This document shows positions 4,752 through 4,782 of a DNA stretch of 64,000 nucleotides, piece after piece. The notes beneath the pieces are model-generated. The model saw only the letters and a list, made by a program, of their open reading frames with translations, was not told the origin of the DNA and did not search any database. How positions within the stretch are numbered: position 1 is the stretch's first letter; each line of letters starts with the position of its first letter. The DNA is from Escherichia coli (lineage in GTDB: Bacteria > Pseudomonadota > Gammaproteobacteria > Enterobacterales > Enterobacteriaceae): assembly GCF_003334335.1 (NCBI RefSeq), contig NZ_QOWQ01000020.1; one strand, given 5' to 3'. The position numbers were made by a program, and so were the translations under genes.

Positions 4752-4782
4752 AAATAAAAACAGGCGCTATTTTCAGCGCCTG
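4752..4782 (-). terminator. rho-independent terminator downstream of pldA
   Basis: Minus strand: CAGGCGCT-GAAAAT-AGCGCCTG stem-loop followed by TTTTTATTTC. Confidence 0.65.

Follow-up and report, generated by a model that had tools for sequence, protein, structure and literature searches.

The pldA–recQ junction and its terminator

Within the 64,000-nucleotide (64-kb) stretch of Escherichia coli DNA that was analysed, hereafter the window, pldA and recQ follow each other on the minus strand and are separated by a spacer of 132 bp. The sequence of E. coli K-12 MG1655 is 100% identical to window positions 4600–5000, and pldA then recQ are annotated on this stretch in all 5426 complete E. coli genomes. 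A window position w corresponds to the NC_000913.3 coordinate g = 4010597 − w, and the offset between versions 2 and 3 of U00096 is here presumably 1977 bp. The features of the junction are as follows.

4866–5735, minus strand: coding sequence of pldA (outer-membrane phospholipase A), from the ORF list and the RefSeq annotation of the identical K-12 sequence
4866–4868, minus strand: pldA stop codon
4801–4846, minus strand: variable upstream part of the spacer, a 3'-end relic of a WapI-family immunity gene, by match to the GF4-3 coding sequence
4792–4797, minus strand: TTGCAG, −35-like hexamer of the proposed recQ promoter, within the block cATTGCAGTTT; its TTG is invariant in 43 genomes
4760–4783, minus strand: terminator hairpin, from a terminator scan and folding (5' arm 4783–4774, loop AAAA 4773–4770, 3' arm 4769–4760)
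4769–4774, minus strand: GAAAAT, −10-like hexamer spanning the loop with the closing G before it and one base of the 3' arm (the first) after it, from the alignment and a PWM
4760–4763, minus strand: predicted recQ transcription start, 6–9 nt past the −10-like hexamer (about 4762), placed from the hexamer position
4752–4759, minus strand: terminator T-tract TTTTATTT (TTTTTATTT when T4760 is included), from the terminator scan and direct reading
4749–4763, minus strand: CTG-N9-CAG, a LexA-box look-alike (2.08 bits), one base too short relative to CTG-N10-CAG
4739–4742, minus strand: recQ Shine-Dalgarno sequence GGGG, 5 nt 5' of GTG 4733; GG(G/A)G is kept in 47 sequences
2904–4733, minus strand: coding sequence of recQ, 609 codons with the GTG start at 4733, from RefSeq, translation, and conservation

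Two recQ start codons had been offered in the initial annotation, of which only GTG 4733 was retained: RefSeq places the start there, none of the 80 Enterobacterales loci compared departs from this GTG, and GGGG lies 5 nt upstream of it. The codon GTG 4739 is not conserved and reads GTT, GTC, or GTA in other genera. The variable part of the spacer matches the 3' end of an annotated WapI-family coding sequence in E. coli GF4-3, in which an intact WapI family immunity protein gene lies between pldA and recQ, and E. albertii carries a 160-aa ORF at the same place. The coordinates of this gene or its relic are 4801–4846 (minus strand) in the window, 786–1244 in locus L083, and 949–1431 in locus L004. 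The boundary of the relic coincides exactly with the upstream edge of the conserved TTGCAG block.

Scanning of the minus strand for terminators revealed a hairpin of the sequence GCAGGCGCTG-AAAA-TAGCGCCTGT, followed by TTTTATTTCA / TTTTATTTC. The stem consists of 10 pairs, 6 of them G-C, closed by a loop of 4 nt, and when folded alone it reaches −16.6 kcal/mol (z = −3.2), with 2 of 200 shuffles folding equally well. Directly 3' of the stem stands U5AU3, an interrupted U-tail (UUUUUAUUU). The hairpin begins 82 nt 3' of the pldA stop codon on the same strand, and its last stem base (4760) lies 26 nt from GTG 4733; the last T (4752) lies 18 nt from GTG 4733 and 12 nt from GTG 4739. The hairpin and T-tract that had been placed at 4752–4782, 15–20 bp before the recQ start, are thereby confirmed. 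A G+C-rich stem-loop and a U-rich tract, located 3' of a stop codon on the coding strand, constitute a canonical intrinsic terminator that follows pldA.

The element does not belong to a repeat family: the core motif is present in one copy in the 64-kb window, and the module occurs once per E. coli genome. An Rfam scan of the element returned no family, only a spurious lncRNA match.

Conservation across Enterobacterales

Comparison of 80 RecQ-encoding loci, one genome per species across Enterobacterales, revealed that pldA is located directly upstream of recQ on the same strand in 77 of them. The spacer ranges from 19 bp (in Pantoea) to approximately 190 bp, or 600–860 bp where a gene has been inserted. 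A core, GGCGCTGAAAATAGCGCC, is near-invariant across 43 genomes that extend from Escherichia, Salmonella, Citrobacter, Enterobacter, Klebsiella, Kosakonia, Cedecea, and Shimwellia to Brenneria and Pectobacterium, with the hairpin reading CAGGCGCTG-AAAA-TAGCGCCTG. Alignment columns 34–54, which hold the hairpin and the first Ts, show 88–100% identity in these genomes, and the block cATTGCAGTTT just 5' of the hairpin shows 84–100%. From the end of the hairpin to the recQ GTG there are 20–28 nt, mostly 25–27 nt, whereas the interval between the pldA stop codon and the hairpin differs widely among these genomes. The module adjoins recQ despite the WapI-family gene upstream in E. albertii and E. 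coli GF4-3, and in Superficieibacter, where unrelated genes precede it, the module is still found with recQ. Judged from these loci, the position of the element is fixed relative to the downstream gene, recQ, and not relative to pldA.

In the stem alignment, 88% of cells are paired and a single double change is present (Brenneria 4F2). Of 500 shuffles, 470 reach the covariation observed in the stem, which is essentially nil, since the stem itself shows no variation. Two controls from the same loci behave differently. In the first 120 codons of recQ, the majority base at 4-fold degenerate sites has a mean share of 62% and 1 of 53 such sites is invariant, and the convergent rhtC/rhtB spacer carries unrelated hairpins in nearly every genus. 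Since the stem is frozen without covariation while the control sites and control terminators change, the conservation lies at the level of the sequence and, as far as these alignments indicate, goes beyond the need of a terminator alone. Among the E. coli genomes, 5340 of 5426 are identical over 4734–4800, compared with 2660 of 5426 over the adjacent 4801–4868. The pldA–recQ element resembles intrinsic terminators in its 10-bp G+C-rich stem, 4-nt loop, U5AU3 tract, and location 3' of the pldA stop codon, and is unlike them in being frozen in sequence across 43 genomes and in having a loop and one flank that are promoter-like. The locus is known and the kind of arrangement is known; the depth to which the hairpin is frozen is the sole mildly surprising feature.

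A candidate recQ promoter nested in the hairpin

Alignment of 47 sequences indicated that TTGCAG and GAAAAT are separated by 17 bp in all 47, with zero indels between the two hexamers, whereas base changes occur between the −35-like hexamer and the stem, and indels are frequent in both flanks. All 47 sequences have AAAAT, preceded by G in 43 and by T in 4 (TAAAAT). The −35-like hexamer has the variants TTGAAG (in the Enterobacter group) and TTGCAC, and Hafnia, Edwardsiella, and Budvicia possess ACGACA or GGGACA at the −35 columns together with TAAAAT at −10. The variants shift towards the consensus (TTGAAG, TAAAAT, and xxGACA), with ACGACA and GGGACA supplying the other half of TTGACA.

Scored with a sigma-70 PWM, a rough one built from textbook frequencies, TTGCAG-17-GAAAAT reaches 7.8 bits and is the best promoter-like site in the E. 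coli spacer. Its hexamers match the consensus at 3 of 6 and 4 of 6 positions. The site shares with sigma-70 promoters a hexamer spacing within 16–18 bp, the A at position 2 and the T at position 6 of the −10, and conservation in orthologous regions. Sites with an equal score are expected by chance at about 1.5 per kb per strand; the score of the E. coli site is thus reachable by chance, and the case rests on the phylogeny and not on the match itself. The TTGAAG variant scores 10.3 bits, and GGGACA-17-TAAAAT and ACGACA-17-TAAAAT (9.2 bits) are further variants. In nearly all loci that bear the core, no promoter-like site, or hardly any, within 250 nt of recQ scores higher than TTGCAG-17-GAAAAT or its variant there. 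A separate, built-in promoter scan of the window did not report TTGCAG-17-GAAAAT. A leader begun at the predicted start folds to −9.3 kcal/mol, weaker than the mean of its shuffles (−13.5), and counts as unstructured.

A second candidate promoter, TTTACA-17-TATGGT in the 3' end of pldA, was rejected. It overlies the LYTQVYSGYG codons, reads TATGGC in E. coli and most others, and varies with synonymous sites, which marks it as a by-product of the coding sequence. In four Pantoea genomes (L064, L068, L072, and L074), in which the spacer is only about 20 bp, TTTACA-17-TATGGT stands inside pldA approximately 92–95 nt 5' of recQ (codons FYTQ..SGYG) and scores 11.1 bits, and relatives vary at the synonymous sites; it may or may not serve as a recQ promoter there.

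The module exists in several natural variants. In Budvicia, pldA has a separate terminator 13 nt past its stop codon and 96 nt before recQ, and ACGACA-17-TAAAAT-AGCGCC still precedes recQ at the usual distance, where the stem comprises only 4 bp (GCGC), is not stable, and has no T-tract after it. The core thus persists without the form of a terminator, so that it would have a function other than termination. This unpacked version of the module is the best evidence that the core is a promoter, as the comparison suggests. The module is absent from Pantoea (spacer of 19–25 bp) and Pseudescherichia (35 bp), where the terminator and the promoter-like site have been lost together, leaving a spacer of 19–35 bp. 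In these genera, recQ must be either co-transcribed with pldA or started inside it. In an Enterobacter MAG and Citrobacter freundii M-21 (loci L022 and L027), a 185-aa lipoprotein-like gene in the opposite orientation lies between pldA and recQ (688–1245, minus strand, in L022). The terminator of pldA is a different one in these loci and looks bidirectional (TCGGGCGCTG-CAA-CAGCGCCCGA); next to recQ, AT-rich DNA with other promoter-like sites stands in place of the module.

In Yersinia, Rahnella, and Erwinia the same place is occupied by a stable hairpin that mostly lacks both a T-tract and a −10 in its loop, and some of them have good −10 hexamers just upstream of it. Since these hairpins differ, the packed arrangement would be one of several solutions. 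Yersinia loci L053 and L061 contain a perfect or near-perfect 22-bp palindrome (ACAGGCCGG-TTAA-CCGGCCTGT) approximately 30–55 nt 5' of recQ, which occupies the place of the E. coli hairpin and has neither a T-tract after it nor a −10-like loop.

On these grounds we propose, with confidence that is about even, a composite module in which recQ's own weak sigma-70 promoter is nested inside the intrinsic terminator of pldA. Polymerase arriving from pldA would transcribe both arms (4783–4760) and the U-tract and would mostly terminate at about 4752–4756. Polymerase bound at TTGCAG (4797–4792) and GAAAAT (4774–4769) would begin transcription near 4762, within the 3' arm or just beyond it. An RNA started there would lack the 5' arm, so that it could not form the hairpin and would escape termination. 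It would possess a 28-nt unstructured leader, the GGGG Shine-Dalgarno sequence, and the GTG start, and the T-tract would also supply the first transcribed bases of the recQ mRNA. Expression of recQ would then be low and constitutive, with some slight read-through added and no LexA control through this region. The anatomy of the terminator, the depth of its sequence conservation, the fixed 17-bp spacing, the linkage to recQ, and the lack of a LexA box are observed directly, whereas the use of the hexamers as a promoter and the position of the start are inferred.

Because the 132-bp spacer closes with a strong terminator, recQ can have a dedicated promoter only if this promoter overlaps the terminator; otherwise its expression depends on read-through. 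This dilemma had been drawn from the geometry, and the geometry holds; between its two branches, the comparative evidence (TTGCAG-17-GAAAAT) favours overlap, which is likely, and read-through is still live. Several points stand against a nested promoter, among them the modest hexamer matches, the chance frequency of equal scores, the built-in scan that passed over the site, and a conservation greater than a weak promoter and a stem would seem to demand. In the one pertinent row of Table S6 of Mendoza-Vargas 2009, a single datum, the 5' end lies upstream of the hairpin and points the other way. In addition, the hairpin that Yersinia and Rahnella carry at this position has neither a −10 nor a T-tract.

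Alternative readings and significance

A possible but doubtful alternative is that the hairpin is a plain pldA terminator which also serves as a recQ attenuator, recQ having no promoter of its own here and being made by a small read-through fraction. Such transcripts would originate from the pldA promoter, or else from a weak start that lies in the spacer or in the 3' end of pldA. The situation would be like that of ampC, which is attenuated by the frd terminator. The hairpin before recQ is already known as a terminator/attenuator: Table S6 of Mendoza-Vargas 2009, in its recQ row, gives a "Transcriptional" attenuator at U00096.2 4003827–4003878, an entry from the catalogue of Merino and Yanofsky 2005, together with a 5' end, mapped by a high-throughput method, that is assigned to recQ and lies upstream of the hairpin, and the remark "promoter predicted: No". 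This interval corresponds to window positions 4793–4742, so that the catalogue, in that row, lists exactly this stretch. Beyond this attenuator row, the genome-wide tables of start-site and 3'-end mapping that were examined hold no recQ or pldA entry, and a full-text literature search returned nothing relevant on the recQ promoter, the pldA–recQ junction, or the hairpin sequence.

Read-through also fits a strong terminator standing 18 nt before the recQ start codon. In Pantoea and Pseudescherichia, which have no room for a promoter, co-transcription would be ancestral or recurrent, and a GTG start with a weak Shine-Dalgarno sequence suits a gene that needs few transcripts. The E. coli-specific site TTGGCA-18-CAGGAT (4850–4821) scores 7.6 bits, nearly equal to the 7.8 bits of the nested site, but it sits in the gene relic, which is absent from other genera. 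Read-through also leaves it unexplained that the AAAA loop, the exact stem bases, the TTGCAG block, and the 17-bp spacing have stayed unchanged when ordinary terminators turn over, and that Budvicia keeps TAAAAT-AGCGCC 3' of a separate pldA terminator.

RNAalifold on 47 sequences gave the terminator stem only, without a conserved alternative (antiterminator) pairing, and no conserved ORF for a leader peptide was found: a mechanical 34-codon ORF with a TTG start runs across the module and is broken by 1-nt indels, which rules out a conserved leader ORF. An antiterminator and a leader peptide were both rejected on this basis. The catalogued recQ attenuator, as given in that table row, shares the coordinates of the pldA–recQ hairpin (window 4793–4742) and denotes a terminator found upstream of a gene; the pldA–recQ element has neither a leader peptide nor a conserved antiterminator. 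The classical case of an upstream terminator that doubles as a downstream attenuator is the frd terminator/ampC attenuator (Grundstrom and Jaurin 1982), as far as the account in PMC11838884 describes it. There, too, the terminator of the upstream unit stands immediately before the next gene, and the two units share a few dozen bp. According to the same account (PMC11838884), the ampC promoter lies upstream of the terminator, inside frdD, and its transcripts contain the whole hairpin and are attenuated. Unlike ampC, recQ has a conserved −10 in the loop, and the proposed transcripts would start past the 5' arm and never form the hairpin.

The invariance could instead reflect sequence-specific binding of a putative factor to the 18-bp near-palindrome GGCGCT-GAAAAT-AGCGCC, the factor being either a dimeric regulator bound to the DNA at the recQ −10 or a protein bound to the RNA hairpin. 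We consider this unlikely. The conservation does exceed the need of pairing, given that there is no covariation, G-U-tolerated changes are rare, and the loop is invariant; the perfect or near-perfect 22-bp palindrome at the homologous place in Yersinia also agrees with a binding site. However, Hafnia, Edwardsiella, and Budvicia keep the right half only (TAAAATAGCGCC), the left half not being its mirror image, so that a symmetric operator does not fit. The 64-kb window contains a single copy of the motif, no Rfam family corresponds to it, and we know of no regulator whose consensus is recognisable in the near-palindrome.

The 18-bp near-invariant block is more conserved than a weak promoter and a stem obviously need, at least by the alignments. 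Because of this excess, the core might have, besides terminating pldA and promoting recQ, a third function that is sequence-specific, such as binding a factor that balances terminator against promoter, or UTP-sensitive reiterative transcription from the shared T-tract (G-UUUUU-A). This idea is quite unlikely to be correct. UTP-sensitive reiterative transcription operates at pyrBI, codBA, and upp, and recQ mutants resist thymineless death. If true, reiterative transcription would tie RecQ levels to pyrimidine pools and would be relevant to that resistance.

It is very unlikely that the conserved block is the body of a small RNA derived from the pldA 3' UTR, with the seed CAUUGCAGUUUCUC, the terminator hairpin, and the U-tail, in the manner of CpxQ and SdhX. 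These are 3'-UTR-derived small RNAs, and the likeness consists of a conserved stretch and a terminator hairpin that end the mRNA of an envelope protein. A conserved single-stranded stretch 5' of a conserved terminator and U-tail is indeed the usual anatomy, and in many genera the pldA stop codon lies only 3–5 nt before the block. Unlike the CpxQ/SdhX type, no such RNA has been found (full-text searches gave no pldA-derived small RNA, and Rfam gave no match), and the pldA–recQ block segregates with recQ, not with pldA, when a gene is inserted. Moreover, the −35-like hexamer of Hafnia and Budvicia differs in sequence but not in spacing, a difference that a seed would not tolerate, and the U-tail is interrupted.

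DNA-damage inducibility of recQ, which the initial annotation had mentioned together with a search for a LexA-like box around the recQ upstream region, finds no support in the sequence, and the search gave no box. With a LexA PWM based on 24 published boxes of E. coli, the best score in 4700–4920 is 2.08 bits, against at least 13.0 bits for the training boxes and 17.3 bits for the uvrD box AGCTGGGTATATATACAGAT (plus strand, 12671–12690), which was held out of training as a positive control and is the top score in the window. No match to CTGT-N8-ACAG with at most 1 mismatch is present in the pldA–recQ spacer. The best-scoring site, CTG-N9-CAG, resembles a LexA operator in the AT-rich stretch between CTG and CAG at the predicted recQ start, and differs from one in its N9 instead of N10, in its score, and in its lack of conservation: the CAG is missing in Salmonella, Citrobacter, Enterobacter, and others. 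Irino et al. reportedly observed SOS-dependent induction of a recQ-lacZ fusion in 1986, and later genome-wide LexA studies, to our knowledge, do not list recQ. Repression by LexA through an operator in this region would account for that induction, and CTG-N9-CAG does overlap the predicted start, but this reading is practically excluded by the scores, the short spacing, and the missing CAG. The textbook label "SOS-inducible recQ" therefore stands without a recognisable LexA operator behind it. Elsewhere in the window, LexA-like 20-mers at 28331–28350 and 57131–57150 score 13.3 and 12.4 bits and probably match by chance; provided that the window is colinear with MG1655, they lie in the 3' end of thrP (yifK) and in the ilvE–ilvD spacer.

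For E. coli biology at large these results carry little weight, the locus having been sequenced since the 1980s and the hairpin already listed before recQ. The pldA–recQ junction would be a clean natural case of terminator and promoter compressed into approximately 50 bp, a packing that appears to have kept the sequence frozen over a very long time. The unpacked (Budvicia), deleted (Pantoea), and insertion variants form a test series for the mutual constraint of overlapping signals. If the start site is confirmed, the module could serve as a compact insulating part for synthetic biology.

Two observations concern the neighbouring spacers. The recQ–rhtC spacer is 63 bp long and has no terminator, so that recQ transcripts may run into rhtC. 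Within it, a block AAAAAAGTGCCAG(G/T)ATG at 2877–2893 (minus strand) is kept across Enterobacteriaceae and resembles an extended −10 (TGn + CAGTAT) for rhtC. The convergent rhtC/rhtB spacer (2159–2219) is, in E. coli, a REP-like palindrome (GTCGGATAAGGCGTTTACGCCGCATCCGAC), and other genera have unrelated hairpins at this place.
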